From positions 558,001-622,000 of the forward strand of contig CDLV01000016.1 in assembly GCA_001244265.2 (NCBI GenBank): a stretch of 64,000 nucleotides of DNA. The letters run 5' to 3'. Source of the stretch: Microbotryum violaceum (taxonomy: Eukaryota). The notes beneath the pieces are model-generated. The model made no database searches and was not told the origin of the DNA. It saw only the letters and a program-made list of their open reading frames with translations. The first letter of the stretch is position 1. Each line of letters begins with the position of its first letter. Position numbers and translations under genes: made by a program. Positions 5,225-54,352 of the stretch are shown piece after piece.

Positions 5225-7956
5225 ATGTCAGCTCTGAACACCGATGCGACCCATCCTGAAGCGAGCAGCGTGATTCTGCCTCCACCCGCGATTCGCTCCA
5301 TCGTCGAGAAGACTGCCGCCTACGTCGCCAAGTCGCCCAACGCAGCCCAGTTCGAAGAGAAGATCCGTGCTCGCGAGAAAAGCGACTCACGCTTCGCCTT
5401 TCTCAATGCCGACGATGCGTATCACCCGTACTATCAACAACGCCTAGAGGCTTTCCGCGAGGGCGAACCTGCGCCGGCCGCGACTGCCCAGACGCCTGGC
5501 CTGGCCGGCGACAAGGCGCCTGTGGGCACTGTTCCTGCAACTTTGGCGGCGGACACAAACCAAGACGACGATGGAATGCCACCCAGGCCGCCAGCTCTCG
5601 AATTCCTTGTCGAGCAACCGCCTGCGATCAACGCCGTTGACCTGTGAGTGCCCGCCATACGTGTTTGGCCTCGGACTTAGCTCTCTCTACTCGCCAACAC
5701 CGCTGAACCCTCTCGCCCGTCTGTTGCAGCGACATTCTCAAGTTAACAGCGCTGTTCACTGCGCGTTCTGGTCGACGCTTCACGTCAGAACTTGCGTCGC
5801 GCGAGAGCCGCAACTATCAATTTGACTTTCTTAGGCCGACGCATTCTCTATTTGGCTGCTTCAATCGGTTCGTACAGGGCCGAGGACCATGTCTTTGGTG
5901 TATCGCCTTGCATGTCTCACTCTGAACCTGCTCATTGCCAGGTTCGTCGAGCAATATACCAAAATTCTCATGCCATCCGACGAGATCCGAAATGGGCTGC
6001 GTCGTCGTAGCCTAGGGACGCTCGACTCGAACCAGCATCGCGTGACCACCGGCCGACGTGAGGTGCTGAGTGATTCGCAGCTACGAGTGGACTGGCAAGA
6101 GTGGGACATGTCTCGACGTCGAGAACTCGACGATGCGCAGGAGGCTAAGCGCGTGGCTTTCGCCGAGATCGACTGGCAAGACTTTGTGGTCGCGTCGACG
6201 ATCGACTTTACGGAAGCTGACGAAGCGGTCTTGACCGAGTTGCCCCCGCCGATGAGCCTTTCAGAGGTTGAGAACATGACAATTGCGCAAAAGAAGATGG
6301 CAGCGATGATCATGGAAGGCAGAAACGCCGGCCAGGACGATATTGTCAGCGATGACGAGACGGAAGGAATGGACATCCGCGGCAACGACGACGATGACCA
6401 AATGCGCGCACGCGATCAAGCCGCTCCCCAACCGACGGCCGTGCAATCACCGGCTATCGAGATCCGGGCAGCTGATACAAGTGCTCCGATGAAGATCCGC
6501 AAAGACTACGTGCCAAAAGGTGTGGCCCCTCGTGTTGCCAGTAGTTTCGCCAATCGGGCTGACATCTTGAATCTGTTGATGCAGCGAATCGGCCTGCTGC
6601 ACCTTCGCAAGCCTTCACCACTTTCAATAACCAACAGATTCCTGTTGAGGAGTTTGCTAGTCACGTCCGAATCGAATTACTGGACCCAAAATGGAAGGAG
6701 GACAAGCGACAGAGCGAGGTCAACCGGTCCACTGCAAATCTTCTACCTCAGGGTCAGCAAGCCGCTCTTCGCCGGAGGGTGGGACACTATGCTGACTCCA
6801 GTTTCTAAAACAGGCACCGATGTCTCCTCCTCAATCCGGAACCTGGCCGCTCATCGACCTGACATCTTCGGCGTCGGTACCGATGACGAGGCCCGGCGCA
6901 AGCAGGAACAAGCTGAAACGCTGGCCAGATCCAAGAAGCGTGAATTAGGCGTGTGGGATGGGCACACAACCACCAAAGACGCTATCACGTCCCGGTACCA
7001 GGCGGGTGCAAATTTAGATGAGCAAATCGAGGCTCTTCATCGTGCCAAAGGATTAGTAGGGTAAGGAAGATGGCACTGCGCATATTATTGATAAGCTTGC
7101 AATGCTGATGCCTCATCTTTTGTCATTGAACAGATCCCAGAATGACAAGGCCACAGTGATCGGTCCCACTGTGCCCAACCTCAGTAATATCGATATCGCA
7201 AGCGCCTCTATGGATGACTCGACCTCTTCCTCTGGGCTACCATCTGTGATGCTAGCTGCTGGTCAGCCTACCCTGGTTGCTACTACGAACACCCCTTCAC
7301 CTGGACAAGTCCCGCTTCCGACTGCTATACCCGTGCCTACGAGTTCTATTGAGACACCCGGGACGGCTGGGCCAAGTCAGACCTTTGATTCATCCTTGCC
7401 ATCTTATGCTGGTGCACAAGCTGGTGTGGTTTCCAATCCCAACAGACCTGCCGACGCGAGCCCGGATGGAGAGCCAACCGCGAAGCGTGCACGCTTGTCG
7501 GTGTCTGGCAACGGTGATCTGCGATCTGAGGCAGAATGGCTGAAAGTGCATGGAACCGTAAGTCACGGCCTGGTCGTATACCACCAATGCTGCTGGCTCA
7601 TTGTACACAAGCATTGTTCGTTTGCAGGATCCCATCCGGATTCGGATCCAGCTTCCCGAATACCCGGCAAAACCAACTTGGGGCTGTGATGGAAGCATTT
7701 TCTCGCTTGAGGTTCCACTCACTCTACTGGTTGGAACCATCCGTGATCGCATTACTGTAAGTTATTGGTTCTGGAACGTGATGCAAGAAACCTGCTAAGA
7801 TGCTTCTGTCGAATCCAACAGAGCAAGGTTGGCCTCCCAGTTTCAAAGCAAAAGCTGCTTCGCAATGGTCGGATACTGGCCAATTCATCAACTTTGGCAG
7901 CACTCAATTTTGAAGAGGGCGACCAAATACAGGTGGCAATTAAAGAGAAGAAGTAG
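5225..7956 (+). CDS. PRP21: Splicing factor 3A subunit 1 (Prp21/SF3A1), multi-exon, about 7 introns
   Basis: Two SURP/SWAP motifs (IRSIVEKTAAYVAK...FEEKIR...FAFLN.DDAYHPYY; DILKLTALFTAR...RESRNYQFDFLRPTHSLF), AFAEIDWQDFVV, MKIRKDYVPK, LAAHRPDIFG and a C-terminal ubiquitin-like domain ending VAIKEKK*. Introns 5644-5729 and 5868-5941 were checked for frame. Confidence 0.93.
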
Positions 7957-8384: not shown

Positions 8385-9256
8385 CCAGTGGGAACCCGTT
8401 AAATTAACGGGAGGATCAAATTCAAAAAAAAGCAGGATAATTGAACAGTCTACATGATCTCAGCGCAGAGGTTAAGAAAACACCCTACAAAGTACAGCAA
8501 AGAAACAAATCCATTCATCCTACATTCATCGCTAAAACAGCCTGCATGTCGCTTGTTGCCGGACTTGGCTTCAAACACTTGTGCAATGAGATCCGGACGG
8601 TTGCATGCTTTGTCATTCAGCCCCAGTGCAGCCTTGATTTCCGGTGCTTCGGGGTCGTACGTCATCGTGATGAGCAGCGGAGGCTTTCCATGTTTGACAA
8701 CGCACGCCATTGCATCCTGGTATCGCTGCCACGCGATGTCGCGCGGTCTATTCTTGAACGTCGAGCCCAAGGTCATCGAACGTCCAATTTGATTCGGGGT
8801 CAAGCCGTTGATGCCTTGGGTCGTGGTGAGGCGTAGGTTCTCTTGATGCAACCGGATTCGTTGATTTGATCGGTCTCGACTTGGGAGTATATTCGTAAAT
8901 CACAAACTCCAGGAAGGGACACTGGGTGCAATGCGGGATTGAGAAGTACTCGCCGCGTCTGGCAAATCGTGCGCAAAGAATTGTGAACGCGAGACTCGCC
9001 ACCTCGACCCCTTTACTTGACCTTCGTCCTAGGTGTTCAAAAGTTCAATGTCAGTCTGTGCTTGCACCTTCGGCAGAATGGAACATCAGAGAAAGAGCCG
9101 AAGACGCGTACGTTCGCCATCACCATCCTCTTCGTCCCCTTCCTCGCCGTCTTCATCCTCATTGTCGCGGTCTTCGTCCTCCTCTTCGCCTTCGTCAGCA
9201 AGACCGAGACCGGCATGTACCTCCAATGATTGGACCCCATTGTCGATCTGCTCTCG
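8385..9256 (-). mobile_element. Helitron copy 1, 3' part (Rep-domain relic plus 3' terminus)
   Basis: QRYQDAMACVVKHGKPPLLITMT...PEIKAAL...NRPDLIAQVFEAK is the Helitron-like N motif. The palindrome CCCGTTAAATTAACGGG is followed on the minus strand by CTGG|T at 8385. Near-identical to 19995-20860. Confidence 0.85.
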
Positions 9257-12200
9257 AACACGGATCACCGCGCAAGCGACTGTACAGCCAACTGGCAGCA
9301 GGCACCGGATGTCCCGGAGGGGTGGGCCGAATTCGAAAAGAAGACGGCGAAAGCGGCTAAGAACAACACCCTCCATCAAATTGCGGAAAACTCAGAAGAC
9401 GACATCTCAACGGACGAAGAAAACGAGTACGCCCCTCAGTTCATCTCCACCATTCCCATCACTCTGCACAACAACACGAAGTCAAAGACGTTGCAGGCAC
9501 TTGCTGACTCTGGGGCCTCTTCCTCCTTTATCGCAGATAAGGTGGTTGAGAAACTGGGGTTAGTCATGCATCGTCTCCCTGTTCCTACATTGGTCAAAAC
9601 TGCAATCAAAGGCCAAGCACGCGCGTTTCATGTTACCTCGTTTGTAAAGATTCCGATCACGCTCGAGAATGGCGCATGGGAAGCGGGACACACGATTCTG
9701 AAGGTGGCTAAACTGCAGGAGCCCTTGGAAGTGGTACTGGGGTTCAACTTCCTTGTAAAACACAAGGTTACCATTGACTTTGCGGCACACAAGATCCTGG
9801 TGCCACATCCGACCATGCCTGACGTAAAGATCGACCTTCTTGCGCCGGTCTTCGGACCCCACCCCCAGCGAGCCGCGGCGAGGAATGCCAAACGAAGCGA
9901 TAAAGCTCGGATCAACTGGCGTGCAGTGATTGCCTACATCGACGGGGTCCAGCAAAGGGAAACGGAGTTGACGGAGTTGCGACGGCGGGAGGCAAAGCTA
10001 CGGGTCGAGTTCGCGGATCGGTTCCCGGGGGATATTCCTCCGGTTTCGACGTATGAATCACCGGTCCGACACCGAATCGAGCTGAAGGACGGAGCAACAA
10101 AACCGAACTTGAAGGGTTATCGAGCGGCACACCGTTACCGGGAAGCCTGGAAGCGCCTGATTGATCAGCACGTTGCCAATGGCCGCCTTCGAAAGTCGTC
10201 ATCAGAGTTCGCGTCCCCGGCGTTTGTCATCCCAAAGAAAGGTATGGATAAGGACCCGTCAATCCAACCACACATGGTCTGTGACTACCGAGTACTCAAC
10301 AAAGGGACGGTCCGAGATCGCACACCTCTACCACTTCCGGACGAGATTCTGTCGGTCTGCTCAAACGCGCGATTCTGGGGGAAGATCGACATTACAAACT
10401 CCTTCTTCCAAACCAAAATGGCCAAGGAAAACATCCGGAAGACGGCGATTGTAACACCGTGGGGATTGTACGAGTGGACGGTAATGCCAATGGGACTCTG
10501 CAACGCCCCGGCAACGCATCAGCGCCGAGTCAACGAGGCACTCGGAGACCTTATCGGGAGCGTGTGTTTCGTGTACCTTGATGACATCACAATCTTTGCC
10601 GACACCTTGGAGGAACATGAACGACGGGTGCGACTCGTCCTGGAGTCGCTGAGACGGGCGGATCTGTACGTATCGCCGAAGAAGACGGAACTGTTTGCTG
10701 CCGAGTGCTTTTTCCTCGGCCACCAGATCACTCGGGAAGGCATCAAGGTCGATCCTGACAAGGTGGAGCGGATCCATCAGTGGCCGCAACCAAGGACGGT
10801 GAAGCAATTGCGGGGATTCCTAGGTCTGGTGCAGTATCTGCGGAAGTTCATCGACAAGCTTGCGGATTTGACAGCGGTTTTAGTCCCGCTGACACGGAAA
10901 GGGGTGCATGTCAACGAAGGCTGGACGGGAGAGCACGACAAGGCGTTTGAGGCAATCAAGTCCTTGGTGGGCAACCTTCCTTCTCTACATCCCATTGACC
11001 ATTCCGACAAGGGCGACCCATTATGGCTGATGACGGACGCGAGCAATCGGGGAATCGGGGCGGCACTCAGTCAAGGAAAGCAATGGCAGACGGCCATGCC
11101 GGCAGGCTATTGGTCACGACAGTACAACCCAGCGGAAGGCAACTATGCAGCCCACGAGATGGAATTGCTTGCAATTGTGGACGCCCTTCATCACTGGCGG
11201 GCAGACCTTTTGGGTGTTTGATTCAAGATCCTCACAGACCACCACTCCTTGGCGGGCTTCATGAAGCAACCAAGCCTTTCACGACGACAAGCTCGATGGA
11301 CCGAACGACTGGCCGATTACGACTTCGAGATTGTATATGTACGAGGTCCAGAGAACACAGTGGCTGATGCATTGAGTCGTTACTCTTTCCCGGAGGAACC
11401 CACAGCCGGCCGCCAGGCGAGCAACAATGTCAATGTGCTGGCGGAGGCAACTCTCGATCCTGCCTTCCTTTGCAAACTCAGGGACGGTTACCGCAAGGAC
11501 CCGCAATGTCAACAAGCTATCAAGAACATTGACTCAACACCAGGCTACTCAGTCGACAATGGAATCGCACGGTTCGAAGGACGGATCCTCCTGCCAAAGA
11601 CAGGGAACTTTCAGGAGGATGCGCTACATGACGCGCATGATGCCGCAGGCCATTTTGGACTACACAAGACGTATGAACACCTACGCCGCAACTTTATCTG
11701 GTCGGGAATGAAGGATGCATGCAAAGATTACGTTGAGTCCTGTGCTGCTTGTCAGACAATGAAGATGCATGGCACCGGTTTTGCCGGTCGGATCCACAAT
11801 TTGAATGTGCCTGACCGGCCAATGCGGGAAGTTGGCCTAGACTTTGTCGGGCCACTTGTACCTAGCAATGGTAATGACACACTGCTTACGGTAACAGATC
11901 GCCTTTCAGGCTACGTTTGCCTCATCCCCTGCCGCACGACGGACGACGCGACTACCACGGCGGACCGGTTCTTTGAGGGGCGGCATCGACACTTTGGCAT
12001 GCCACGAGTGCTGGTCTCCGACCGCAACAAGCTCTTCACAAGCGAGTTCTGGCGAGCGTACATGGGCCAGCTGGGAACGAAACTGGCAACATCGACGTCT
12101 TTCCACCCACAAACGGATGGCCGAAGCGAGCGAACGAATCGGACCGTGATCCAAGTCCTGCAAACAATGGTCAACCGACGGCAAAATGACTGGTCAAAGC

Positions 12201-13133
12201 ACTTGGCTACGGTGGAGTTTGTGATCAACTCCAGTATGAACAGGTCGACGGGGAAGACGCCATTTGAAGTGGTACTTGGGTTCACGCCGGAGCTGACACC
12301 GATCACCCCAGTGGAGGGCTCAACCACGTCACAGGCAGTCAAATCCATCGTGGAACAACGTGAAGCAGCGGTTGCGGAAGCCCGAGACAATTTGGCAATT
12401 GCAAAGATCCGACAGGCCAACCAGAGCAACAAGACGAGGAAACCGGAGCCCGGGTTTGCAGTGGGCGACATGGTCTTAGTCGACTCGCGGGATCGACGAC
12501 TGCGGTACAAGGCCGATGGGGAAGCACGGTCAGCCAAACTCTTTCCCCGGTTTGACGGCCCCTACGAAGTCCTAGCAGCACGACCCGAAACCTCAAATTA
12601 CAAGCTGAAGCTCAAGGCGGGGGACAAGTCGCACAACGTCTTCCACGCCTCCAAGCTCCGATGCTGGGTAAAGAATAATGGGGTGGTGTTCCCAGGACGA
12701 GAGGCAACGGAACCAGCGGCCATTATCGTCCAAGGAAACGAGGAGTGGGAGGTAGAACGGATTGTGGACGAAAAGGGGAAGGGGTCAAGGAAGAGGTTCT
12801 TGGTGAAATGGAAGGGGTGGGCAGACAGCGACAACACATGGGAGCCATGCTCACACCTGGAAGACACCGCAGCGTTGGAAGAGTGGGAGAGTGGGAAGGC
12901 GGGGGGAGGACAAGGCAAGGAGGGGAGGGTGTAAGGAGGGAGGGGAGTTTGGTTTAGGTGGTGGAGAGTGTAAGGCCCGTGCGCCTGGGCCTTAGGAAGA
13001 GGGGACGCGCGCCTGGGCACTCTTAGTCTCTCTCCAGCAACTGATACGAGTGTCCAGTGTCAATTCTACATACTTTGGTCCTGTGATCCTTGTCGTCGTC
13101 GCTCAGGTGTACACTCCAACGGGGTGTATTACA
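9257..13133 (+). mobile_element. 5'-truncated Ty3/Gypsy chromovirus-type element: PR-RT-RH-IN-chromodomain, PPT and 3' LTR (12930-13133)
   Basis: [12 protein letters not shown] (protease), YLDD (RT), LMTDAS (RNase H), HHCC and DFVGPL...DGRSE (integrase), WEVERIVD...[16 protein letters not shown] (chromodomain). One in-frame TGA at 11219-11221. Purine tract then TGTAA...TTACA. Confidence 0.93.
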
Positions 13134-19586: not shown

Positions 19587-19770
19587 TATGAAGTTGTGAC
19601 GCCTGCTCAAGCAGTGGTAAGTCTCTGAGGACCAAGGGAGACCAGACCAAGAAGTTGCTTGAGCAGGAGAGAAACCGGTGTGGAGCCAGCTGGCTAGGCC
19701 CGTGCCCACCCAGAGTCAGGCGCACGGACCAGGCTCAGAGTGGGAGAGCTAGAGTGGTGAAAAGTAGGAA
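19587..19770 (-). mobile_element. Copia family C LTR fragment (short form)
   Basis: Matches 42706-42920. Confidence 0.75.
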
Positions 19771-36840: not shown

Positions 36841-39800
36841 AATCCGCGCCGGGCCTAGCCGCCCGCGCTGCTTGGACCTCTCTTTGGACTTAGAGATATT
36901 TCGCACACTCGCACTGCGCGCCTCTTTAGTCTGCCCCCTAATGCTCCAAACTACTCCCTTACAACCGTACTCTGTCTTGAGTACTTACTGGTTGCCAATC
37001 CAGTCTCCCTCGAGGAGTACAAGTCTACAGGTTATGAGCCCGAGCTCACGCTGCCAACACCATCACCGTCACTTGCAACCATTGTGTTTGTCCTTGTCAC
37101 CATCTTCGTTCTGTACTACACCTTTGCCACCGCCCTCGCCCACACGACCGGCCGTTACTGTGATGATGTCACGCCTGCTCAAGCGGTGGTAAGTCTCTGA
37201 TCAAAGGACCAAGGGAGACCAGACCAAGAAGTTGCTTGTTACACACCTGCTCAAGCGGTGGTAAGTCTCTGATCGAAGGACCAAGGGAGACCAGACCAAG
37301 AAGTTGCTTGTTACACACCTGCTCAAGCACTACCGTAAGTTACCACATCTAGAGGGATGAAAGATGATAGGAACAGTAGTGCTCACCTGCTCAAGCGGTG
37401 GTAAGTCTCTGATCGAAGGACCAAGGGAGACCAGACCAAGAAGTTGCTTGAGCAGGAGAGAAACCAGGGAGGGGCCAGCTGGCTGGGCCTAAGTGCCCAG
37501 CCAGAGTCAGGCGCACGGACCTGGCCCAGAGTGGGAGAGCTAGAGTGGTGAAAAGTAGGCCAAAAGTGATCAAAATGAATAGAGGAGGATGTTGAGGTAG
37601 ATGCAAGATACAAGAAGGACATGAAGGAGATATTTGATCTCACACCCCCCTACTTCGAGTATCAGGGAGCACAGATACCGAGTCGACCGCGGTGCCGAGC
37701 AAAGAGGTCGCGTGACAATGCTTTGGTGAAGATGTCCGCTGTCATCTCACCAGTGTTGATGTACTGGACAACAATATCGCCCATGGAAACCATATCCCGG
37801 ACGAAGTGTTCGCGCAGGCGGATGTGCCGAGTCCGAGCATGAAATACCGGATTCTTGGTGAGAGCATTGGCACCTTGGTTGTCGCCGTAGATGAGGACGG
37901 GCTTTGAAGACGAAAGGCCAAGCTCACCAAAGAGCTGACGCAGAAAGATTGCCTCCTTACCAGCGTGTGACAGTGCAAGGTACTCGGCGTCACAAGTGGA
38001 GTCAGCAACGCGCGATTGAAGCCGGGAGGACCATGAGATGGCAGCACCTGCATAGACAAAAGTGTAACCCATGGTCGACTTGGAAGAGAGGACGCATGCA
38101 CCCCAGTTGCAGTCGGAGTAGCCCAAGAGCGGTGCCGGATCCCCACGAGTGTAGCGTAAGCCGTGAGGAAGAGTGCCAGCAATGTAACGGAAGGTGTGCT
38201 TGACAGCTCCCCAGGCAGCAGCAGAAGGCGAGTGAGAGAAGCGAGCCAAGTAACCGACGGTGTAAGCCAGGTCGGGCCGAGTACCAGTGGATGCATACAT
38301 GAGGGAGCCAATGGCTTGCAGGTACCGAGTGCGATCCGGAAAAGGGGTGGGCTGGAGCTCGACTTCAAGGCGGAGATCGGACTGCATGGGAGTTGCAACC
38401 GGATGGGCGTCGGACATGCCAAATCGAGCAAGGACGTCCTTGAGGTACTGCTCCTGACTCAGGGAGATGGAGCCGTCTGGAGAACGCCGGATCTGAATGC
38501 CGAGGACGTATTCCGCCTCACCAAGCCGTTTGACACCATAGCGCTGCTCAAGACCCTGAAGGGTACGCTCAATCTCGGGAGAGAGGGGCTGATCATGAGC
38601 AGGTCGTCGACATAGAGCGCAATGTAGTGGCGCACATCGCCCGTTGTCCTGACGTAGACGCAGTCGTCGGATTCGGTGGCAACATAGCCAAGCGCGGACA
38701 AGGCAGAGTCAATCTCGTCGTTCCAGATGCGACCGGCCTGGCGCAAGCCGTAGAGGGACCGATGCAGTTGGAGGACCTTGCCTGGCATGTAGATGCCATC
38801 AGGTACACGAATGTACAGGGGTGCATCGAGTTTGCCGTGCAGGTAGGCTTTGTCAATGTCGGCCTGGTGGACGTGGTACCCATGAGCAGCAGCAAGAGCC
38901 AGGAGTGCGCGGATGGAGGTGAATTTGGCCACGGGTGTGAAGGTCTCGTCGAAGTCGATGCCAGAGCGTTGGGAGTCACCACGAGTAACGAGACGGCCCT
39001 TGTAGGACTTGACTTGGCCATGCTGGTCGCGTTTGGTGCGGAAGACAAAGCGGGAGCCCAGGACCTTGGCGTCTGCTGGGACAAGGGACTCGTCAATTGG
39101 TGTGAACGCCGAAAAATCTCGCAAGAGTGAGTCAAACTCGTCGCGGGCCGCAAGACGCCATTCATCCGCTTGAGGGGTGGCCATGGCCGCTCGCCAGTGA
39201 GGTGGGTCGCGAGCGGGGGCAATCAGTTCCGCAGGGTCGGCGGGCGAGGTCTCAATGAGGGCGGCAGCGCCAGAGGCAAGGTAGGCCACGGCAGAGGGTG
39301 AGTGGAGTGCGTCATCCACATCGTCGGGAAACTCCTGCGCCTGGCATAGCAAAGCAACATCGCGTGGGCGTGGCAGGAGATTGATCGGGTCCGGGGAGTC
39401 GGACCGAGCGGGTGAGGATGGTGCTGGCAATACACGGGAGGCCACGGGGCGCGGGGAAGGACAAGGCGTGGAGATGGCCGAGTTGGAGCTGCCTTGGTCA
39501 GAGGCGCTTGATGCAGGAGATTCCGGGTCAGGGAGCTCACGAGCAGGGGAGCCTTGGTCAGGGGCAGGGGGTGCAAGCGAGTCCTGGTCAGGGACCTCGT
39601 GGGCAGGGGAGGGACGGCGCGGGCCCTGGTCAGGGGCTGCCGGCACGGGTCGAGGTGGCTCAGCGCGAGGCGCGAGTGAGCGAGGGGAAGCAACGAGCGA
39701 AGGCTCAAGGGGGTCTACCTGGTCAGGGTATGCGTCAACGGTGACGGGGAGTGGGATTGGTTCAGCGCGAACGTTGGTGGCTGGCCGGAGTGCAGGGAAC

Positions 39801-40159: not shown

Positions 40160-40557
40160 TGCGAAGGGTGAAAAAATAGAGCAGCTGGTAGCTCGTTGGG
40201 CTTATAACCTGTGATGATGTCACACCTGCTCAAGCGGTGGTAAGTCTCTGATCAAAGGACCAAGGGAGACCAGACCAAGAAGTTGCTTGAATTACACACC
40301 TGCTCAAGCGGTGGTAAGTCTTTGATCGAAGGACCAAGGGAGACCAGACCAAGAAGTTGCTTGAGCAGGAGGGAAACCAGAGAGGGGCCAGCTGGCTGGG
40401 CCTAAGTGCCCAGCCAGAGTCAGGCGCACGGACCTGGCCCAGAGTGGGAGAGCTAGAGTGGTGAAAAGTAGGCCAAAAGTGATCAAAATGAAGAGAGGAG
40501 GATGTTGAGGTAGATGCAAGATACAAGAAGGACATGAAGAAGATATTTGATCTCACA
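40160..40557 (-). mobile_element. Family C LTR plus PBS plus short leader, inserted into family C integrase, TSD CRATT
   Basis: LTR 40210-40557, PBS 40177-40209, leader ending ...CTTCGCA at 40160. CGATT at 40155-40159 and CAATT at 40558-40562. Confidence 0.75.
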
Positions 40558-40850: not shown

Positions 40851-41312
40851 CATTTGCGCTACATCGACGTGGAGGAGATCCAGACGGCCAGAGGCGATGG
40901 ACTTGGACCGGGCAAAGGGGAGGGCATGCGCTTTGGAGGCGAGACAAGCATTGCAGTAAAAATCCCGGAGCTCCCGATCCTTATACACCCAAGCCACCCC
41001 AGTAACCAAGCCGCTCTGCACAATGTTTTTGATTTGCGCAACGGGCAAGTGCGCGAGGCGACGGTGCAGAGTCAGCAAGGACATTTGCGCTACATCGACA
41101 TGGAGGAGATCCAGGCGGCCAGAGGCAATGGACTTGGACTGGGCAAAGGGGAGGGCATGCACTTTGGAAGTGAGACAAGCATTGCAGTAAAAATCCCGGA
41201 GCTCCCGATCCTTATACACCCAAGCCACCCCAGTAACCAAGCCGCTCTGCACAATGTTTTTGATTTGCGCAACGGGCAAGTGCGCGAGGCGACGGTGTAG
41301 AGTCAGCAAGGA
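40851..41312 (-). repeat. In-frame 231-bp tandem duplication of the GAG-pre-integrase (HHCC) region
   Basis: The 77-aa block SLLTLHRRLAHL...VDVAQM occurs twice; it is single in the copy at ~56110-56340. Confidence 0.9.
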
Positions 41313-42925
41313 CACTTTGGCAGGAATGGCGAGGAGGGCTTTGGGCGTACAGGGTGTAGGTCCAAGTGCCAAGGCGTACAGGTTGTTCCCAATGGCTTGA
41401 GCGGTAGCGACGACGGCACCCGAGGGACGGGCGATGCTTGCACAACGAGATGCGAAGGAGACGCGGTAGCCAAGTTGATCCAACTGGAAGACGGACAGCA
41501 GGTTGCATGGGAGATCCGGTACCAGGAGGACATTGGACACGGTGATGGGACCCGTTGAAGTCTGGATGCAAATGGTGCCGCAGCCGGTGGAAGGGAGGGA
41601 ACCGGCGACGCCTCCAACTCGTGGGCCTGCGACCGTGCGAAGCTCGGAAAAAAGGCCCCTGTCGTTCGTCATATGGCGATTAGCGCCCGAGTCAAGAAGC
41701 CAAGCCGATTTGCGAAATGGCGAAGGTGTTGCGAGGAGACAGGCCGTGAACGACACAGAGTTGGGTGTGTCCACTGCGGCTGGTGACGCGACTGGCTGGG
41801 AGGCCTTCTTCTCGGCGGTGCGGCGAGCTCGGTAGGCGGCGGCCCAGGCGGTGTCGGGGCATTCCCGGAGCCAGTGCATCTTGCGACAAGACGGATTTGG
41901 GCACGGCCTTGAGCAACCGTGGCGGGCCTGCGGGGTGGCGACGGCAGCAACGGGAGTGTCGACGGGGCGGGCTTTGACATCGCGGTAAAGGCGCGTGAAG
42001 ATCTCGGTGGCGGAGGGCATCGCAGTGGAATCGCCCTGGTCAGCAACGAAGGTGGTGCGCCAGGCGTCGAAGGATGAAGGAAGGCGAGCAAGCAAGTGCG
42101 AGGCAAGAAGGGCGTTCACGGTGACCTGCGAGTCCTGCAGCAGCCGGGCGTCGTTCTCAAAACTGTCGCGGAATTGCAGGAACAGGCGGGAGTGACAGGC
42201 ACAGGGTCGGAGCTGAAGAGGCGTTGGATGACCGGTAGCAGATCGACAGCAGAGACGGTGCCGTAGCGTTCGCGAAGTGCCTGCCAGACCTTGGGTGCTG
42301 CGAGCAATTCGTCGAGGTAAGGTGACAGACCCGGGAGGACAGTTTGCGAATTGACGGAGGCGCAAATGGAGGAGCAGGCGTAGTGGTCCCAGAGAGGGAC
42401 ATACGAAGCAGGCCAAGACTCGAGTGGTACGCCCGTGTTGAGGTAACGGACGACGCCGGAGGGCAGGCGTGAACGGATGGCGAGGACCCAGTCTCGGTAG
42501 CCGGACGAGTTGCGAAGCAGCTCGGTCGTTGCGAAGGCCGCAGAGTGGGTGGGCGGGCGCAAGGGCGGCGCATTGGGCGTGGGCTCGCGGAGCTTGGCTT
42601 CAGGCGCGGAGGCGCCGGCGTCGGACATGTTGCGAAGGGTGAAAAAGTAGAGCGAAGGGCGGGCACGGAGGTGGCCGCACTGGTAGCTCGTTTGGGCTAA
42701 TAACCTATGAAGTTGTCACGCCTGCTCAAGCGGTGGTAAGTCTCTGATCGAAGGACCAAGGGAGACCAGACCAAGAAGTTGCTTGAGCAGGAGAGAAACC
42801 AGAGTGGGGCCGTTTGGCTGGGCCCAAGTCAGCCCAGCCAAAGTCAGGCGCACGGACCTGGCCCAGGTGCAGAGACCAGGCCCAGAGTGGGAGAGCTAAG
42901 GTGGTGAAAAGTAGGCCAAAAGTGA

Positions 42926-45720
<2,795 letters not shown>

Positions 45721-48700
45721 TGTGACAAGTCCACTCTCAGCTCGGCAGAGGCGCCTCGGTCGTTGCGCGCACCCGCTAGCCCGCCCCCTGCGCTGGGGAC
45801 TTAAACGCGCGCGACTGACTCAGCGCGCCAGCGCCGGGTGGATCCGTGCGCGTGCCCACTAGGCCGCCCCCTTGTGGTGGGGACTTAGGCGCGCGCGACT
45901 GCCTTAGCGCGCTAGCAACTTCACCCGCGACTGGGCCTATCTCAGCGCGGGTCCCCTTTCTGTTTCTTAGCTTCCCTCTCACCACTTCTGTTCAACAATC
46001 AACCTCTCCTGACAGTAGTGGTGATTGTCTCATAGGTTATTTGCCCATCGACCTACCGCTGGCATGGACACGTCGTCGCCCTAACGACGGGTGCCCACCC
46101 AACAATCCCCGCCGAACAGCTCGCCGCACTTACGTCGCTGCTGTCGGGTCTCACCACTGCCACATCCGCCACGTCGTCCGGCACCTCTCGCCCCGCCTTT
46201 CCAAAGCACGCACGCTTGGATGGGCCCAAGACGTTTGCGAGCTGGACACGCCAGCTTCGCCTCTGCCTCGCGGACAACATCCGCTCATACGTCCTCGACG
46301 GGATCGTGCCCGCCGACTGGACACCTTCGCACCGCTCTGCCCGCGATGTCGTGGCACGTGAGCTTCTTGCGAACTCGATCGACTCGGCCGAAGTCTCGGC
46401 AGTCCTCGACGCAATCCCTACCGCTGACCTCACAGCGCCCAAAATGTACTCGACGCTGAAATCGCGGTATGCTCCTGACGACGCCACTCGCACGCTTGAG
46501 CTCTTCTCCCGACTGTGGAGTTTCCGGCCCATGCCCGGCACCGTTGGCGAATTTGATGGCTGGATCATGGAGTTCAAAGCTATTGCGCAAGAAATCATCG
46601 ATACGAAGACCACGATCAACGATGTTCTTGCCACACTCCTCCTCGCCATCGCTCACCCGTCCCTCGAGAGTTTCAAGGCATCGTTCACCGATGAACAGCG
46701 CACTCAACGAGCTCTCCCCGTCATCAATTCGCTCGCCGACCGCATGCGTGTTCAACTCCGGTCCACCAACGTCTCCAGCACCCAATCGGCCCTTCTTGCC
46801 TCGTCGTCGTCACGTCCTACCCGTCCCAAGTGTCTCGCCTGTCGCAGCCCTTCGCACCGTGTGGCGGAGTGCCCTGTGAGAGCCGAACACCCGCCGCCAG
46901 GACCCTGTCGCTCCTGCAAGCAGAATCACTGGTCTTTTGACTGCAAAAGGGCTCTCGAGAACGGCAAAAAGGCCGACACGGCGAGCTCGACCGCCGACTC
47001 GCAACACCATGTCGGATGTATCGCCACCGGTTTTCTCGCACGTCGCCGCCAGCTTCGCACCAACTCTTTTGTTGTTGACTCGGGGGCCACCTCGCACATG
47101 GTCTCGGACAAGTCGCTGTTCACGACCTATCGCCACATCGCTCCCACAAAGATTGGAGGCATTGCAGGGGGCATCAACGCCATCGGAACGGGAAACATCG
47201 CCTTTGTTGCCGCCTCGGGCCATCCGATCACGCTCACTGGCGTGCTGCACACTCCCGGCCTGTTCGTAAATCTCCTCTCGGTCTCTCGACTTTGCGACAC
47301 CGACGACGTCCGTGTTGCCTTCACGAAACACGGCATTGACATCGACAAAGAGGGCAACAACATCGCTGAAGGCACGAGGCTCGACGAGGGACTCTATTTG
47401 CTCGACGCTGATCATTCCAAATGTCAGCACCTTGCTCTCCTCTCTCGTTCACAGTCTTCCGTGCCCCTGCTGACTCTCCACCGCTGCCTCGGCCATCTCG
47501 CACCGTCGTCCATACAGAAGATGGTTGCCGCTGGTTTGCTGGAGGGTCTCGGGGCCGGATATAGTGACGAAGAGGTAGAGAAGTTTGTCTGCAATGCGTG
47601 CCTCAGCGCCAAGGGCCATCGTCTTCCTTTTCCCGATTCGGATTCGCACTCCTCCGAGAGACTCGGCCTCGTACACAGCGATGTACTTTCCCTCCCGGAG
47701 CGTTCCTTGACTGGCAAACGATACCTCGTCACGTTCCTCGACGACTACTCGCGCAAACTATGGGCCTACGCAATCGGACATAAAAGCGAAGTCTTCAGCG
47801 TATTCAAGACTTGGCTTGCCGAGGTCGAGCTCGAGACAGGTGCAACACTGAAGGTCCTCCGAACTGACAATGGTGGCGAGTATTGCTCGAGAGCATTCAC
47901 GGAGTTCTGCAAGGTGCGAGGTACGCGTCAACAATACTCTATCCCTCGCACGCCTCAACAAAACGGTCGGCGGAGCGGGTCAATCGGTCCATTGTTGAAG
48001 GCATTCTTGCCCTTCTGGCGGACGCCCATCTACCCAAGCCATTCTGGGAGGAGGCTGCGGCTTACTTCGTTTACTGCAAGAACCTGGTTCAACACTCGGC
48101 TCTCGACAAGGCAACACCGAACTCGGTCTGGCAGGGCGGACGCACCACAGCCTCCGCGCTTCACCCGTTCGGCTGTGCGGCTTGGCTCACGGTCGCGCCC
48201 GAACTTCGCTCTAAACTCGACCGAAAGCGGTTCGCGTTCTGTTCACCGGCTACGACTTGGCTTCCAAAGCCTTCCGCTTCTACGACCCTACAACAAAGAA
48301 GGTCACCCTGGGCAGAAATGCCACCTTCCTCAACACCGAATTCCCCGGGTTACGTGGCGACTCCGCCGAGCCAGACGATGACACGCACTTCGCCAGCGCT
48401 CCCTTTGCCGACCCTCAAACCACCGTCGAATCATGGACCCCACTAGTAAGGTCGGCGCACATGGACGTCTCATCCCCTCTTGATGATTCTTCCATGAGCG
48501 CCGTTGACGTGGCCCCAGGGTACACTGGCGGATCCTTACTTAATTCCACAGATGCCGAATCGCCCGCGTCACCGTCGCCTGCGCCGTCCTCGTCACTGTC
48601 TCCTGAGCCGGCCTCGTCCCCTTCGGCTGCACCATCGTCCGCGCCCTCACCGTCGTTGGCTGCATCGTCGTCACCTTCGGCCTTACCCACTGAATCTGAG

Positions 48701-51339
48701 TACTCCGCCGATCCTCTTGACCTCATCGGATCACAGCCCCAGGCTCCCCTCGACCCAATGGACACCCACTCCCAGACTTCAGCACGTACCGCGAGCCCGC
48801 ATCGCCTGAGGAGTCGCCCGACGAACTCGATCTCATTGGACGCCACTCTTATGAGACAATCACCACTACTGTCAGGAGAGGTCGATTGTTGAACAGAAGT
48901 GGTCTATTTCAGCATACCTATGAGACAATCACCACTACTGTCAGGAGAGGTCGATTGTTGAACAGAAGTGGTGAGAGGGAAGCTAAGAAATAGAAAGGGG
49001 ACCCGCGCTGGATAGGCCCAGTCGCGGGTGAAGTTGCTAGCGCGCTAAGGCAGTCGCGCGCGCCTAAGTCCCCACCGCAAGGGGGCGGCCTAGTGGGCAC
49101 GCGCACGGATCCACCCGGCGCTGGCGCGCTGAGTCAGTCGCGCGCGTCTAAGTCCCCAGCGCAGGGGGCGGGCTAGCGGTGTGCGCGCACCGACCGAGGC
49201 GCCTCTGCCGAGCTGAGAGTGGACTTGTTACAACTCTCGCGACGAGTCCCCGGACGAAATCGATTTCCTCACTTGCCATCACCGCGCGTTCATTGCGACT
49301 GACGACGACAACTCTGATACCGAGGCCATCGAACCCGTCAAATCCATTACGAGCGACCCACAGACCTGACGAGAAGCGATGTTGGGCGACAAACGTGAGG
49401 TATGGGCCAAGGCCACTGCCGATGAGTTCAATTCCATGCGCGACGACTTCAAGGTCTTCACCATTGATGACCGTTCTACAGTACCTGCGGGCGCGACCAT
49501 CGTACCGTCCAAATTCGTCTGGAAAACAAAACGGAACACACTCGGCGAGATCACTGGACACAAGGCACGGCTGGTCGCGCAAGGCAATCGCCAACGTGAC
49601 GGCATCGACTTCACTGAAACCTTCGCACCGGTCGCACACTTCTCTTCGATACGCTCCCTCCTTGCGCTGGCGGCCGCCAATGGCCTCCATGTACACCAAG
49701 CGGACATCGACAAAGCCTACCTTCACGGCGACCTCGACCACGACATCTGGATGACGGCACCGCGAGGATTCGATCTTCCTGGCGATAAGGTGCTCCGACT
49801 GGGACGCTCCATCTACGGGCTCAAACAAGCTGGCAGAATCTGGAATCGACACATCGACGCTTCGCTTCGCGACCTCGGTTACACGGCGACAGGCACCGAT
49901 CACTGCGTCTACGCTCGGCTCGACGATCGACAACGCCCACACTACATCGCGCTGTACGTTGACGATCTTCTGATGATCAGCCCGGACCTCGCCGAAATCG
50001 AACGTGTCATCTCGGGCCTTGAACAACGCTACGGTGTCAAGCGACTCGGCCCGGCGGAGTACATCCTCGGCATCCAGATCAGGCGTCTCAACGACGGCTC
50101 TATCGCCCTATGCCAGGAACGGTACATCATGGACGTGCTCGCTCGGTTCCACTTCGACACTACGACTCGCGGCGCTACCATCCCGATGACCCCCGGTCTT
50201 TCGCTCACCGCCATTCCGGGCCAAGGCACGGAACAGATCAGGTCGTGGTATCTACAGGCAATCGGCTCGCTCCTCTACATCTCGCTTGGCACTTGCCCCG
50301 ACATCGCCTTCGCCGTATCTTACCTGGCCCGCTTCGCCAACAACCCGGGTCAGCGCCATTGGATTGCCGTCAAGCACGTCCTACGCTACCTCCGAGCCAC
50401 TTATCGCGACGAGCTTCTCTACACTTGTGGTAAGACGGACATCAAGGGCGTGGTAGGTTACTCCGATGCCAACTGGGGTGCCTGCGTCGACACATCGGTC
50501 TCCACCATGGGTTTCGTCTTCTACATTGCCGGCTCCGCTGTGTCCTGGTCCTCCAAGCGTCAATCGCGGGTCGCCGACTCTACCACCGACGCGGAATACC
50601 TCGCTCTCTCGCATGCTGGCAAGGAAGGGATCTACCTCAGTCAGCTGCTTGAGGAGCTCCATGTCCAGTCCGGTATCCCCACTCACATCTACACTGACAA
50701 CGAAGCTGCTGCCGCCGTCGCACGAGACCCTGTCCGCGCATCCGGGACTCGACATATCCGTCTGCGTGAGCACTTCGTTCGGGACATGGTGAATCGGGGT
50801 GAGATTTCTCTTTCGCACGTGGGGACAAGCAACATGGTGGCCGACATTTTTACCAAGGCACTCGGCCCGAAGATTTTTTCCATGCATTGCTATGCTCTCG
50901 GCTTGCGCACTCGACATCCACGGCTTGGGTCTGCCTCGCATTCGCGTGGGGGGGGTGTGACAAGTCCACTCTCAGCTCGGCAGAGGCGCCTCGGTCGTTG
51001 CGCGCACCCGCTAGCCCGCCCCCCTGCGCTGGGGACTTAGACGCGCGCGACTGACTCAGCGCACCAGCGCCGGGTGGATCCGTGCGCGTGCCCACTAGGC
51101 CGCCCCCTTGCGGTGGGGACTTAGGCGCGCGCGACTGCCTTAGCGCGCTAGCAACTTCACCCGCGACTGGGCCTATCCCAGCGCGGGTCCACTTTCTATT
51201 TCTTAGCTTCCCTCTCACCACTTCTGTTCAACAATCGACCTCTCCTGACAGTAGTGGTGATTGTCTCATAGGTATGCTGAAATAGACCACTTCTGTTCAA
51301 CAATCGACCTCTCCTGACAGTAGTGGTGATTGTCTCATA
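45721..51339 (+). mobile_element. Full-length Copia family A: 5' LTR 45721-46034 (314 bp), gag-pol, 3' LTR 50956-51339 (384 bp)
   Basis: All domains in Copia order (gag, PR, IN, RT, RH) with a few frameshifts; interrupted by a solo LTR. Flanks ATTCT/GTCCT are not a clean TSD. Confidence 0.92.
48850..49232 (-). mobile_element. Family A solo LTR (383 bp, long form) with TSD ACTCT
   Basis: ACTCT at 48845-48849 and 49233-49237; minus-strand ends TG...TA. Confidence 0.9.
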
Positions 51340-53952
51340 GTCCTGAGCCGGTGCGCCTGGTTCGTTCCGCGCGCCTAAGTCCTCTGCCGATGCGCCCGGC
51401 TCGCTCAGCGCGCCTAAGACCTGTGCCGATGCGCCCGGCTTGATCCGCGCGCCTAAGTCCTGAGCCGAGCGGAGAGTGGATTCTTCACACGACACGCCCG
51501 CCCCCGCCGTCAAGACGAGGACCCACTAGTAAGGTCGGCGCACATGGACGTCTCATCCCCCCTTGATGATTCTGCCATGAGCGCCGTTGACGTGGCCCCA
51601 GGGTACACTGGCGGATCCTTACTTAATTCTACAGATACCAGCCCCTCGTCGTCTCCGTCGTTCGGCCCGTTTTCGTCTCCCGCCACCTCCTCGGCTGGGG
51701 GACCGTCCATCGATGACTCGGATGATCCGCTTGACCTCCTGAACTCCGACACCGCGGTTCGCCTCAACCTGATGGACGTACATCGATCCGACGACGACAC
51801 CTCGGTGACACCCACGCCCGCCGCTGCCGCCTGGCAGCCCCCGATGACGACTCTCCTGATGAGATCGATTTCCTCTCTCGCCATCATCGCGCTTTCATCG
51901 CCACGGACGACGACGACCCCGCCCTCGAAGCCATTGAACCCGTCAAATCGATCACTAGCGATCCCCAGACCTGGCGTGAAGCGATGTCCAGCGACGAGCA
52001 CGACCTCTGGGCTCAAGCTGCCTCAGACGAGTTCACCGCCATGCGTGACGATTTCAAGGTGTTCACCATCGAGCCTCGCTCCTCAGTACCGCCGGGCGCC
52101 ACCATCGTCACCTCCAAATTCGTCTGGAAGACCAAGCGCGATGCACAGGGTGATATCACAGGGCGGAAGGCACGCCTTGTTGCACAGGGAAATCGCCAGC
52201 GCGACGGCATCGACTTCTCGGAGACGTTCGCACCCGTCGCCCGTTTCTCCTCCATTCGCTGCCTTCTCGCCCTTGCCGCTGCCAATGGCTACCACGTTCA
52301 TCAGGCCGACATCGACAAGGCTTACCTTCACGGCGAGCTCGATCACGATATCTGGATGACGACGCCACGAGGCTTCGACTTCCGCGGCGACAAGGTTCTC
52401 CGGCTGCGACGCTCGATCTACGGTCTTAAGCAGGCCGGTCGCATCTGGAATCGCCACATCGACACATCACTTCGAAGTCTTGGGTACAAGGCAACGGGCA
52501 CTGATCACTGCATTTACTCTCGCATTGATGATCAGAAGCAGCCCCATTATATCGCATTGTATGTCGACGATCTCCTCATTGTCAGCCCCGCCCTCGACGA
52601 GATCGAGCGTGTCATCTCCGGCCTCGAACAACGATACGGCGTCAAACGGCTCGGCCCCGCAGAATACATCCTCGGCATCCAAATTCGACGCCTGGAAGAC
52701 GGCTCCATTGCTCTATCCCAGGAGCGCTACATCATGGACGTGCTCGCCCGCTTCCACTTCGACACCACAACGCGCGGCGCTACGGTGCCAATGACGCCGG
52801 CCTCTCGCTCACGGCTGTACCGGGTCAGGGAACGGAACGCATTCGGTCGTGGTACCTGCAAGCCATCGGCTCCCTCCTATACATTTCACTTGGCACTCGG
52901 CCCGACATTGCCTTCGCCGTCTCGTACCTGTCCCGGTTCGCCAACAACCCCGGCCGCCGCCATTGGATTGCCGTCAAACACGTCCTTCGCTACCTTCGCG
53001 CTACGTACCGCGATGAGCTACTCTACGCCTGTGGCCCCGCCAAAATTACGGGTGTGGTTGGCTATTCTGATGCGAACTGGGGTGCCTGCGTCGACACGTC
53101 CATCTCCACAATGGGTTTCGTCTTTTACTTGGCCGGCTCCGCCGTCTCTTGGTCATCGAAGCGTCAGACTCGGGTAGCAGATTCCACCACTGATGCCGAA
53201 TACCTCGCCTTGTCGCATGCTGGTAAGGAAGCGATTTACCTTACGCAACTCCTCTCCGAGCTCCACGTTCGCCCGGTCGATGCAGCCCACATTTTCACCG
53301 ACAACGAGGCCGCCGCCGCCGTCGCTCACGACCCCGTTCGCACTTCGGGCACTCGACACATACGCCTCCGCGAGCACTTTGTCCGCGACATGGTCAACCA
53401 AGGCGAGATCTCTCTCTCACACGTCGGCACAGCGAACATGGTTGCAGACATATTCACCAAGGCGCTAGGTCCCAAGATTTTCGGTGCACATTGCTATACT
53501 CTAGGTCTCCGGACGCGTCACCCACGGCTCAAGTCTACCTCGCGTTCGCGTGGGGGGGGGTGTGAAGAATCCACTCTCCGCTCGGCTCAGGACTTAGGCG
53601 CGCGGATCAAGCCGGGCGCATCGGCACAGGTCTTAGGCGCGCTGAGCGAGCCGGGCGCATCGGCAGAGGACTTAGGCGCGCGGAACGAACCAGGCGCACC
53701 GGCTCAGGACTGAGGCGCGCGGCGCGCAGGACTTAGGCGCGCGGAGCGAGCCTGGGACTTAGGCGCCCCGGCTCAGGTCTTAGGCGCGCGGAGCGAGCCT
53801 GGGACTTAAGCGCAGGGAACGAGCCTGGCCCAAGGGTTAAGCCCAAGGGTCCCAGGCTGAGGACTTGAGGCGCGCGGCTCCCATACTGTTAGCTTCCTAT
53901 TCATCACTCTTGGCTATAACTACATCGCTGACGTAGTAGAGTTGATCGAATA
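51340..53952 (+). mobile_element. Copia family D: inverted LTR fragment 51340-51489, RT-RH 51490-53560, PPT, LTR 53561-~53952 with a GGACTTAGGCGCGCGG minisatellite
   Basis: [33 protein letters not shown] start; repeated GACTTAGGCGC units. Confidence 0.85.
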
Positions 53953-54352
53953 GCGGAGTGCCCTGTGCGAGCCAAACACCCGCCGCCAGGACCCTGTCGC
54001 TCCTGCAAGCAGAATCACTGGTCTTTTGACTGCAAAAAGGCTCTCGAGAACAGCAAAAAGGCCGACACGGCGAACTCGACCGCCGACCCGCAACACCATG
54101 TCGGATGTATCGCCACCGGTCTTCTCGCTCGTCGCCGCCAGCTTCGCACCAACTCTTTCGTCGTTGACTCGGGGGCCTATAAGACGATCACCACAACTGT
54201 CAGGAGAGGTTGAGAGTCGAACAGCAGTGATGTATTTCAGCATACCTATAAGACGATCACCACAACTGTCAGGAGAGGTTGAGAGTCGAACAGCAGTGAT
54301 GAAAAGGAAGCTAAGAAACAAAAGAGGGGCCCGCGCTGGGATAGGCCCAGCC
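53953..54352. mobile_element. Family A gag/PR scrap (+, 53953-54177) and long-form family A LTR 3' part (-, 54178-54352)
   Basis: Matches 44577-44800 and 43630-43729, the latter with the duplicated unit. Confidence 0.8.

Follow-up and report, generated by a model that had tools for sequence, protein, structure and literature searches.

How can a retrotransposon keep an intron at the end of its long terminal repeat (LTR), given that an element copied through RNA is expected to lose whatever has been spliced out of its genomic RNA? This question is raised by a stretch of 64,000 nt of the Microbotryum violaceum genome (contig CDLV01000016.1, positions 558,001 to 622,000; here called the window), in which a first-pass annotation had noticed that several LTRs of one Ty1/copia family, named family A here, end in 69 nt that read as a spliceosomal intron and that other LTRs of the family lack. 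We found that the 69 nt are one period of a tandem duplication at the LTR end, that the number of periods varies, that the repeated units are identical within each LTR, that a second copia family has LTRs of the same design and that reduced forms are in excess next to the primer-binding site (PBS). That the period is really spliced is plausible from its signals, with about equal chances either way.

One long family-A LTR was used as a BLAST query against the whole window. Eight copies were obtained, all within 43.4-63.5 kb, and together with the alignment this placed every copy listed in the first-pass annotation where it had been reported (Table 1). In the alignment of the eight LTRs, five ended in a unit of 55 nt, a spacer of 14 nt and a second unit of 54 nt, and the remaining three (3/8) were short by exactly one 69-nt period. 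Intact long LTRs measured 382-384 nt and intact short ones 312 and 314 nt. The clean absence of one 69-nt period from the three short LTRs was thus borne out, while the "duplicated 69-nt unit" of the earlier description turned out to be a 55-nt direct repeat plus a 14-nt spacer. A 15-mer covering the spacer was found solely in family-A LTRs, with four exact copies and one with a single mismatch (eight matches at ≤3 mismatches, where ∼1 is expected by chance), and no further copy that could be the source of the spacer was present in the window. The window also contained no tRNA gene to which the spacer or the PBS could be matched. A candidate third, diverged unit in the leader past the PBS was not significant (123/500 shuffles scored equally).

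The terminus of the family-A LTR was fixed as ..CATA by two solo LTRs with perfect 5-bp target-site duplications (TSDs; AGAGT and CGGGA), and therefore the G that completes the TAG lies outside the LTR. The PBS (GGTTAT..) follows the LTR directly and a G-run polypurine tract (PPT) precedes the 3' LTR. The repeat extends 2 nt into the PBS, so that ..CATAG GT is found after unit 1 and, where a PBS follows, also after unit 2. All three short LTRs stand before GGTTAT.., in agreement with the earlier statement that short LTRs are always followed by the PBS, and the long LTR at 63063 is likewise PBS-adjacent. The acceptor G followed the family-A LTR in 4/4 PBS contexts. It was also present, by chance, in 2/4 flank contexts, where the bases after the four long LTRs without a PBS were A, G, G and C. 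The PBS looks like the complement of a tRNA anticodon stem-loop; in Drosophila copia, half of a tRNA serves as the primer. The short family-A leader would consist of 54 nt of the unit and 28 nt up to the gag ATG at 63473, and it holds no upstream ATG. The sole upstream ATG of the leader lies in the spacer (51272-51285 in the LTR at 50956), where it opens the minimal upstream reading frame ATG CTG AAA TAG.

As a local standard for intron signals, eight host introns of the window were modeled from frame continuity; the seven-intron model of an SF3a/PRP21-like gene resulted in an uninterrupted frame of 745 aa. The eight introns were 61-86 nt long, had GTNNG at the 5' splice site (8/8) and YAG at the 3' end (8/8), and carried CTNA-type branch motifs 15-25 nt before the intron end. 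The family-A period has 69 nt and runs from GTATGC over CTGAC, 23 nt before the end, to TAG. The GTATGC donor was present in 5/5 long LTRs, across two subfamilies. At the sequence level the intron-like reading held, as the period matched the modeled host introns in size and signals. When the window was screened with a loose intron filter (GTNNG at the start, CTNA located 10-40 nt from the end, and YAG), 1.5e-4 of the positions passed at length 69, the LTR copies counted among them. The background was 1.1-1.7e-4 per position, which over all equivalent registers (58 for family A) gives a chance of ∼1% per family. All three period types found in the window, of 69, 72 and 68 nt, passed the filter, and all three lengths fall inside the range of the host introns (n = 8).

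The 72- and 68-nt periods belong to a second copia family, named family D, whose reverse transcriptase (RT) region is ∼66% identical to that of family A at the DNA level. Its LTRs contain 64-nt units separated by GTGTGTAA, and the resulting 72-nt period reads GTGTGT..CTTAC..CAG. The two longest family-D LTRs also contain the 68-nt period, GTGAGC..CTTAC..CAG. It is a diverged copy of the family-D period (0/2000 shuffles aligned equally well) that keeps GTGAG, CTTAC and CAG together with the last 10 nt. The three donors, GTATGC in family A and GTGTGT and GTGAGC in family D, thus all fit the 5' splice-site pattern GTNNG, and each family combines a branch-like CTNA(Y) 10-40 nt before the end with a YAG (CTGAC and TAG in family A, CTTAC 15 nt before CAG in family D). 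No homology was detectable between the family-A and family-D periods (z = 1.2; 255/2000 shuffles scored equally). Copy number was 1-2 in family A and 1, 2 or 4 in family D, and the four-period layout is kept in two family-D lineages that are 96% identical to each other. In family D both the CAG acceptor and the base after it lie inside the LTR, and the AG/GT is away from the LTR/PBS junction. The last unit is followed by GCGTGA in 5/6 copies, as opposed to the GTGTGT of the internal spacers, and the would-be downstream exon is therefore mostly without a donor. As a separate observation, the 68-nt period at 60141-60208 carries an upstream ATG in the minimal reading frame ATG TGG TAA; no upstream ATG of the leaders lies outside the intron-like segments, and both of those present open a three-codon mini-ORF.

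Within each of the long family-A LTRs, units 1 and 2 were identical (0/54 differences in 5/5 LTRs). Between LTRs the units fell into three haplotypes that were up to 9/54 sites apart. The family-A LTRs split into two subfamilies, here alpha and beta, and in the beta fragment at 54178-54352 all beta states were present in both units. The spacer was nearly invariant, with a single change from ..ATAG to ..ATAC in beta. As identity within LTRs is maintained despite three haplotypes, the units have been re-synchronized and are not evolving freely. The free evolution of a single old duplication cannot give this pattern: either the copies were repeatedly re-synchronized or the duplication was re-made by a templated process. 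The LTR at 63063-63444 is a mosaic, in which alignment columns ∼100-215 are beta-like (as in the LTR at 43418) and both ends and the units are of alpha type; LTRs of the two subfamilies therefore recombine.

Long and short forms were not placed at random. Among family-A LTRs in PBS context, those at 43418, 45721 and 62034 (reverse strand) are short and that at 63063 is long, and all four in flank context (49232 and 54352 on the reverse strand, 50956 and 59325) are long (0/4 short). In family D, the three LTRs next to a PBS have 2, 2 and 1 units, and the three next to flank have 4, 4 and 1 periods. With both families pooled, reduced LTRs made up 6/7 of the PBS contexts vs 1/7 of the flank contexts (Fisher one-sided p = 0.015; 0.07 for family A alone and 0.20 for family D alone), which agrees with the earlier claim of a non-random distribution. 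The first-pass annotation had named a lack of conservation of the GT, branch and AG signals among subfamilies and a random distribution of the two forms as outcomes that would speak against it, and in the DNA neither was seen. In the paired LTRs, of which the 5' one was the shorter in each case, 367/367 aligned bases were identical in element D, with a gap of 139 nt; the values were 342/348 and 138 nt in element G', and 308/314 and 69 nt in element B. A possible fourth pair, the 5' LTR of element E and the beta fragment, was identical at 106/107 positions and differs in the same direction. Removal of one period restores the unduplicated sequence in family A, where a short LTR equals a long one minus 69 nt; the family-D 5' LTR of element D likewise equals its 3' LTR minus 139 nt.

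The explanation we favor, and for which we see an even balance of chances, is a tandem duplication across the AG/GT at the LTR/PBS junction that has the anatomy of a duplication-born intron and whose copy number is changed and homogenized during reverse transcription. A long family-A LTR would be a short LTR whose last 55 nt, abutting the PBS, were duplicated in tandem. The duplication would also have included 2 nt from the start of the PBS, and with 12 nt of filler the period would come to 69 nt. Since the duplicated block would span the AG/GT formed by the LTR end and the PBS, the extra period would read GTATGC..CTGAC..TAG, and its excision would regenerate the exact short leader. Loss of periods and identity of the copies would come from template switching between the repeats, from first-strand transfer in an alternative register and/or from copying of spliced RNA, the last being an additional route from long to short. 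If periods are lost in this way during reverse transcription, the short LTRs would therefore lack exactly one period. A deletion that occurs during synthesis of plus-strand strong-stop DNA would stay in the 5' LTR alone. RNA splicing by itself explains neither the short DNA of the 5' LTRs nor the identity of the units, and reverse-transcription or recombination events are therefore needed. We infer that reverse transcription is the stage at which the periods change and that splicing makes such duplications tolerable by restoring a leader free of upstream ATGs. Survivorship might then account for what is seen, in that reverse transcription would make many duplications at this place and those with a spliceable extra period would restore the normal leader and hence be tolerated. 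In both families the first unit, and no later one, has a pyrimidine-rich tract before it. Fungal start sites typically have such tracts immediately upstream, which suggests a start of transcription close to the first unit; the RNA would then contain the donor.

Several observations weigh against this explanation. The AG/GT of family A is inherited from the LTR/PBS junction, so that part of the intron-like appearance comes free. Predicted RNA hairpins of the units (z of -1.4 and -1.4) and of the long forms (-1.9 and -1.0) were not distinctive when compared with shuffles. The PBS/flank contrast comes from 14 LTRs of one 64-kb transposon nest, whose copies are not fully independent. The 5' LTR was the shorter one in 3/3 pairs, although canonical reverse transcription yields two alike LTRs. 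At the few-percent deletion rates that we suppose for repeats of 55-64 nt, a rate derived from the length trend given in part of PMC3187697, three asymmetric pairs of three are unexpected. By our own reckoning, errors within the canonical scheme would favor the shorter 5' LTR ∼3:1, which is the right direction, yet 3/3 pairs would still not be likely. Finally, the persistence of full forms in flank context (6/7) while LTRs in PBS context are mostly reduced hints that the periods are inherited via the 3' LTR, as U3 sequences are, and hence lie upstream of the transcription start site (TSS) and outside the 5' untranslated region. The available read data fall on neither side. K-mer contigs of 4/24 sequencing runs (three guessed to be RNA and one guessed to be DNA), compared with 62037-64000 at 90% likeness, contained no joints and no 69-nt gaps; with words of 31 nt, the contigs cannot get through the repeat of 55 nt and end within it, and the result speaks neither for nor against splicing. 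One contig of 99 nt seemed to have the order spacer-unit-spacer and was rejected as evidence of a three-unit LTR, its length being 69+30 nt, as expected of a closed k-mer cycle of the period. Pattern scans of metagenome contigs, for both the junction specific to long LTRs and the unit, and of genome contigs gave no match.

The simplest rival holds that the period is a plain variable-number tandem repeat that arises by template switching of RT and is never usefully spliced, its GT..AG being incidental to the A/GGT junction and to chance. We regard this as a serious contender that nevertheless falls short of probable. Variation in copy number and homogenization are what is expected of tandem repeats in LTRs (parts of PMC3187697), each clean deletion can equally be read as recombination between direct repeats of 55-64 nt, and the AG/GT of family A is the LTR/PBS junction itself. 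Against this view, the intron filter, with its chance rate of ∼1% for each, is passed by both unrelated periods and by the diverged third one, and all of them have host intron length; in addition, the AG/GT of family D is not located at the LTR/PBS junction. The excess of full forms in flank context (reduced 1/7 vs 6/7) would be accommodated if the units were U3 promoter or enhancer repeats with the TSS in the last unit, so that the upstream periods would lie outside the 5' untranslated region and be inherited via the 3' LTR only, like retroviral enhancer repeats. Reduction of the 5' copy is tolerable only if that copy is not inherited, and conservation of the four-period layout between the two family-D lineages would also fit. 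We consider such repeats unlikely, as the last family-A unit abuts the PBS and R and U5 would have to fit in <55 nt, and as the pyrimidine-rich tract stands before the first unit only. It is likewise unlikely that periods are lost from host DNA once the element has integrated, whether through slippage in replication, through single-strand annealing or because short cDNA converts the region of the 5' LTR and PBS. Such loss is in keeping with signs of frequent homologous recombination in the nest, namely perfect 5-bp TSDs in 2/2 solo LTRs vs 0/3 two-LTR elements and the two LTRs common to tandem elements that are described below, and conversion by cDNA, which needs homology on both sides of the period, would act only next to the PBS and so yield the observed bias. 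Plain slippage predicts no 5'/3' bias, and the element D pair, which has no substitution at 367 aligned positions, leaves little time since insertion. An assembly artefact, with tandem units collapsed or expanded, is hardly credible. Tandem repeats within dispersed repeats are hard to assemble, but 14 copies, which differ in their flanks and in subfamily-specific nucleotides, repeatedly show these forms, and a collapse would not follow PBS context.

Two further proposals give the period a role in the life of the element. According to the first-pass annotation, the segment is spliced from the 5' LTR only, where the PBS gives the acceptor G, is retained at the 3' end and so distinguishes the two LTRs, for example by removing a poly(A) site or terminator from the 5' one. 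The position of the family-A acceptor G outside the LTR and the absence of short forms among the four flank-context LTRs agree with this proposal, and the spacer is A/U-rich with UAUG and GAAAUA, which we take to resemble fungal 3'-end signals. In canonical LTR biology U5 is absent from the 3' end of the RNA, and retention there would hold only if the poly(A) site lay beyond the units. A precedent in spirit is available in foamy viruses, which silence the 5' poly(A) site through a splice donor in the LTR upstream of the poly(A) signal (as set out in part of PMC3694450). We nonetheless judge the proposal highly unlikely and think that the period does not serve to distinguish the two LTRs. A sequence difference between 5' and 3' copies, the acceptor G, exists only in family A, where it is blurred by the chance G after 2/4 flank-context LTRs; in family D the donor, the CAG and the following G all lie within the LTR, and the 5' and 3' copies are equivalent. 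The segment is missing from the DNA of the elements with short LTRs and can thus be no obligatory terminator, and the proposal leaves the short DNA forms unexplained, as it does the identity of the units. Completion of the acceptor by the PBS, as had been claimed, therefore stands for the family-A LTR end and does not extend to family D. The other proposal is an LTR intron that renews itself. The transcribed LTR end (R-U5) would be duplicated, with the second copy and the spacer forming the intron, and splicing would give a short leader free of upstream ATGs. Minus-strand strong-stop DNA made from the spliced 5' end would be complementary to the unit, would land on the intronic unit at the 3' end of the RNA and would rebuild the order unit-spacer-unit, and two copia families of the intron-rich host would have arrived at this design separately. 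Unit 1 would overwrite unit 2 in each cycle, so that the intron would be kept through retrotransposition and the units would be perfectly identical because of the overwriting. For such a cycle, transcription would have to begin where the unit begins and the poly(A) site would have to lie past unit 2, and we hold the cycle to be quite unlikely.

The window has a G+C content of 55%, with two host genes at its left end and a nest of LTR retrotransposons from ∼8 kb to its end (Table 1). Both host genes lie directly beside this nest of at least 56 kb, and the layout could be pericentromeric. Many pieces in the nest are of Ty1/copia type, with the Pfam order gag_pre-integrs, rve, RVT_2, in which the integrase is upstream of the RT. 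Two LTRs (within 43001-43760 and 62037-63480) have an element 3' end with a G-run PPT before them and a PBS and gag after them. Each is thus common to two tandem elements, as homologous recombination and not insertion by integrase would give, and homologous recombination has therefore clearly reshaped the nest. Other duplications were also observed. A 231-nt tandem duplication (97% identical) is located at 40851-41312, within the gag-pol frame of a minus-strand copia element. A diverged copia RT fragment (51846-53586), 78% identical to element B, stands between two 39-nt tandem arrays of opposite orientation (51339-51468 and 53582-53828), whose motif GGACTTAGGCGCGCG recurs in the U3 of family A.

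Table 1. Positions of LTRs, LTR parts and other features in the window (1-based). PPT, polypurine tract; PBS, primer-binding site; TSD, target-site duplication.
Feature	Position	Strand	Remarks
Long family-A LTR	50956-51339	+	PPT at 50948-55 precedes; 3' LTR of element B (45721-51339)
Unit 1 of the 50956 LTR	51217-51271	+	55 nt, terminus ..CATAG
Spacer of the 50956 LTR, GTATGCTGAAATAG	51272-51285	+	14 nt; holds donor-like GTATGC
Unit 2 of the 50956 LTR	51286-51339	+	54 nt, same sequence as unit 1; CTGAC 23 nt before LTR end
Long family-A LTR, shared by two tandem elements	63063-63444	+	PPT upstream, PBS downstream
Intron-like period of the 63063 LTR	63377-63445	+	PBS region 63445-63472; gag ATG at 63473
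Solo long family-A LTR	59325-59707	+	TSD CGGGA; sits within family-D element D
Solo long family-A LTR	48850-49232	-	TSD AGAGT; sits within element B
Long family-A LTR fragment, beta subfamily	54178-54352	-	175 nt; both units beta-type; spacer terminus ..ATAC; no PBS after
Short family-A LTR, single unit	45721-46034	+	314 nt; 5' LTR of element B; PBS after
Short family-A LTR, beta subfamily	43418-43729	+	312 nt; PPT upstream, PBS downstream
Short family-A LTR, beta subfamily	61804-62034	-	231 nt, unrelated internal deletion; 5' LTR of truncated element E; PBS after
Family-D 5' LTR of element D	54353-54719	+	two 64-nt units separated by GTGTGTAA (54568-54703); PBS after
Family-D 3' LTR of element D	59862-60367	+	four periods
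Layout of the 59862 LTR	unit a 60077-60140; diverged 68-nt period 60141-60208; spacer and unit b 60209-60279; spacer and unit c 60280-60351; tail 60352-60367	+	
Family-D 3' LTR of element G'	37159-37644	-	same four periods as the 59862 LTR
Family-D 5' LTR of element G'	40210-40557	-	two units; PBS after
Family-D LTR, one unit	42706-43000	-	PBS after
Family-D LTR fragment, one unit	19589-19768	-	no PBS after; sole reduced LTR in flank context
PBS regions	63445-63472, 46035-46062, 43730-43757, 54720-54745	+	start GGTTAT; positions 7-8 vary: AA, TA, TT, TC
5-bp flanks of the three two-LTR elements	45716-45720/51340-51344; 54348-54352/60368-60372; 40558-40562/37154-37158		no perfect TSD; flank pairs ATTCT/GTCCT, CAGCC/CAGCA, AATTG/GTAAC
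Rtf2-like gene	∼3415-4400		host gene
SF3a/PRP21-like gene	5225-7956		host gene; seven introns in model
Chromodomain gypsy element	9230-12934		

If the explanation we favor is true, the LTR would contain an intron derived from its own end and held identical to it, which would reveal a way for an element to have an intron and still transmit it, and at this locus the birth of introns through tandem duplication could be seen as a live and recurring process. In intron-rich fungi an intron may help the element by better expression or by removal of upstream ATGs. Even without splicing, two unrelated LTR families with 1-4 periods and a 5'/3' bias would form a compact natural system for asking where LTR repeats are lost, in reverse transcription or in a recombination step.

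Among known systems, introns born by duplication share the anatomy. Rogers' model reportedly has introns gained through the tandem genomic duplication of a segment that contains AGGT. That a single step of tandem duplication is enough to produce a functional intron is described in passages of Hellsten et al. (2011; PMC3265369), and potato RdRp is presented as a case of a duplication-born intron in part of PMC4974935. In those introns, as in the LTRs, a tandem direct duplication spans AG/GT, the first copy gives the donor and the second the acceptor, and removal of the period restores the original. The LTR case differs in that it sits in a retrotransposon terminal repeat beside the PBS, that its splicing is a prediction from sequence, that the intron would vanish whenever spliced RNA is reverse transcribed, and that its copies are kept identical instead of diverging.

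Retroviral LTRs and vectors likewise contain direct repeats of tens to hundreds of nt that undergo clean one-repeat deletions and vary in copy number. The known retroviral LTR direct repeats are mostly U3 enhancer repeats, whereas the periods described here lie at the U5/PBS edge, have full splice signals and show a marked bias to reduced 5' LTRs. Sections of PMC3187697 report that retroviral direct repeats are unstable in reverse transcription, that the frequency of deletion rises with repeat length and that templates are switched about as often in RNA-dependent as in DNA-dependent synthesis. Foamy viruses resemble the present elements in having, in both LTR copies, a splice donor within the LTR that could bear on the choice of poly(A) site. 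In the part of PMC3694450 that treats the mechanism, the major splice donor lies upstream of the poly(A) signal, and binding of U1 snRNP suppresses the 5' LTR poly(A) site independently of splicing. In foamy viruses the acceptor is a long way downstream in the viral genome; the putative intron described here lies entirely inside the LTR.

Introns have also been linked to LTR retrotransposons of other hosts. Transcripts of Drosophila copia are partly spliced. The copia-type element BARE has subgenomic splicing, with transcripts in separate RNA pools, according to portions of PMC3735527. These Ty1/copia elements share partly spliced transcripts with the reading favored here, with the difference that their introns, as far as those portions describe them, lie within the internal coding region rather than being a duplicated LTR segment. 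For maize LTR retrotransposons, sections of a preprint (bioRxiv 10.64898/2026.05.08.723830) report canonical introns in LTR-contained transcripts and call them the first evidence of introns in LTRs themselves; the introns described there average 1303 bp and belong to non-coding LTR-contained RNAs, not to a 69-nt tandem period in the leader of a genomic RNA. Full-text searches of main articles for LTR or leader introns and for U5 tandem repeats gave no description of a short, duplication-born, homogenized period at the U5/PBS edge. What is new at this locus is thus the homogenized intron-like period at that edge, and the kinds that stand behind it, tandem repeats of LTRs and introns born by duplication, are both known.

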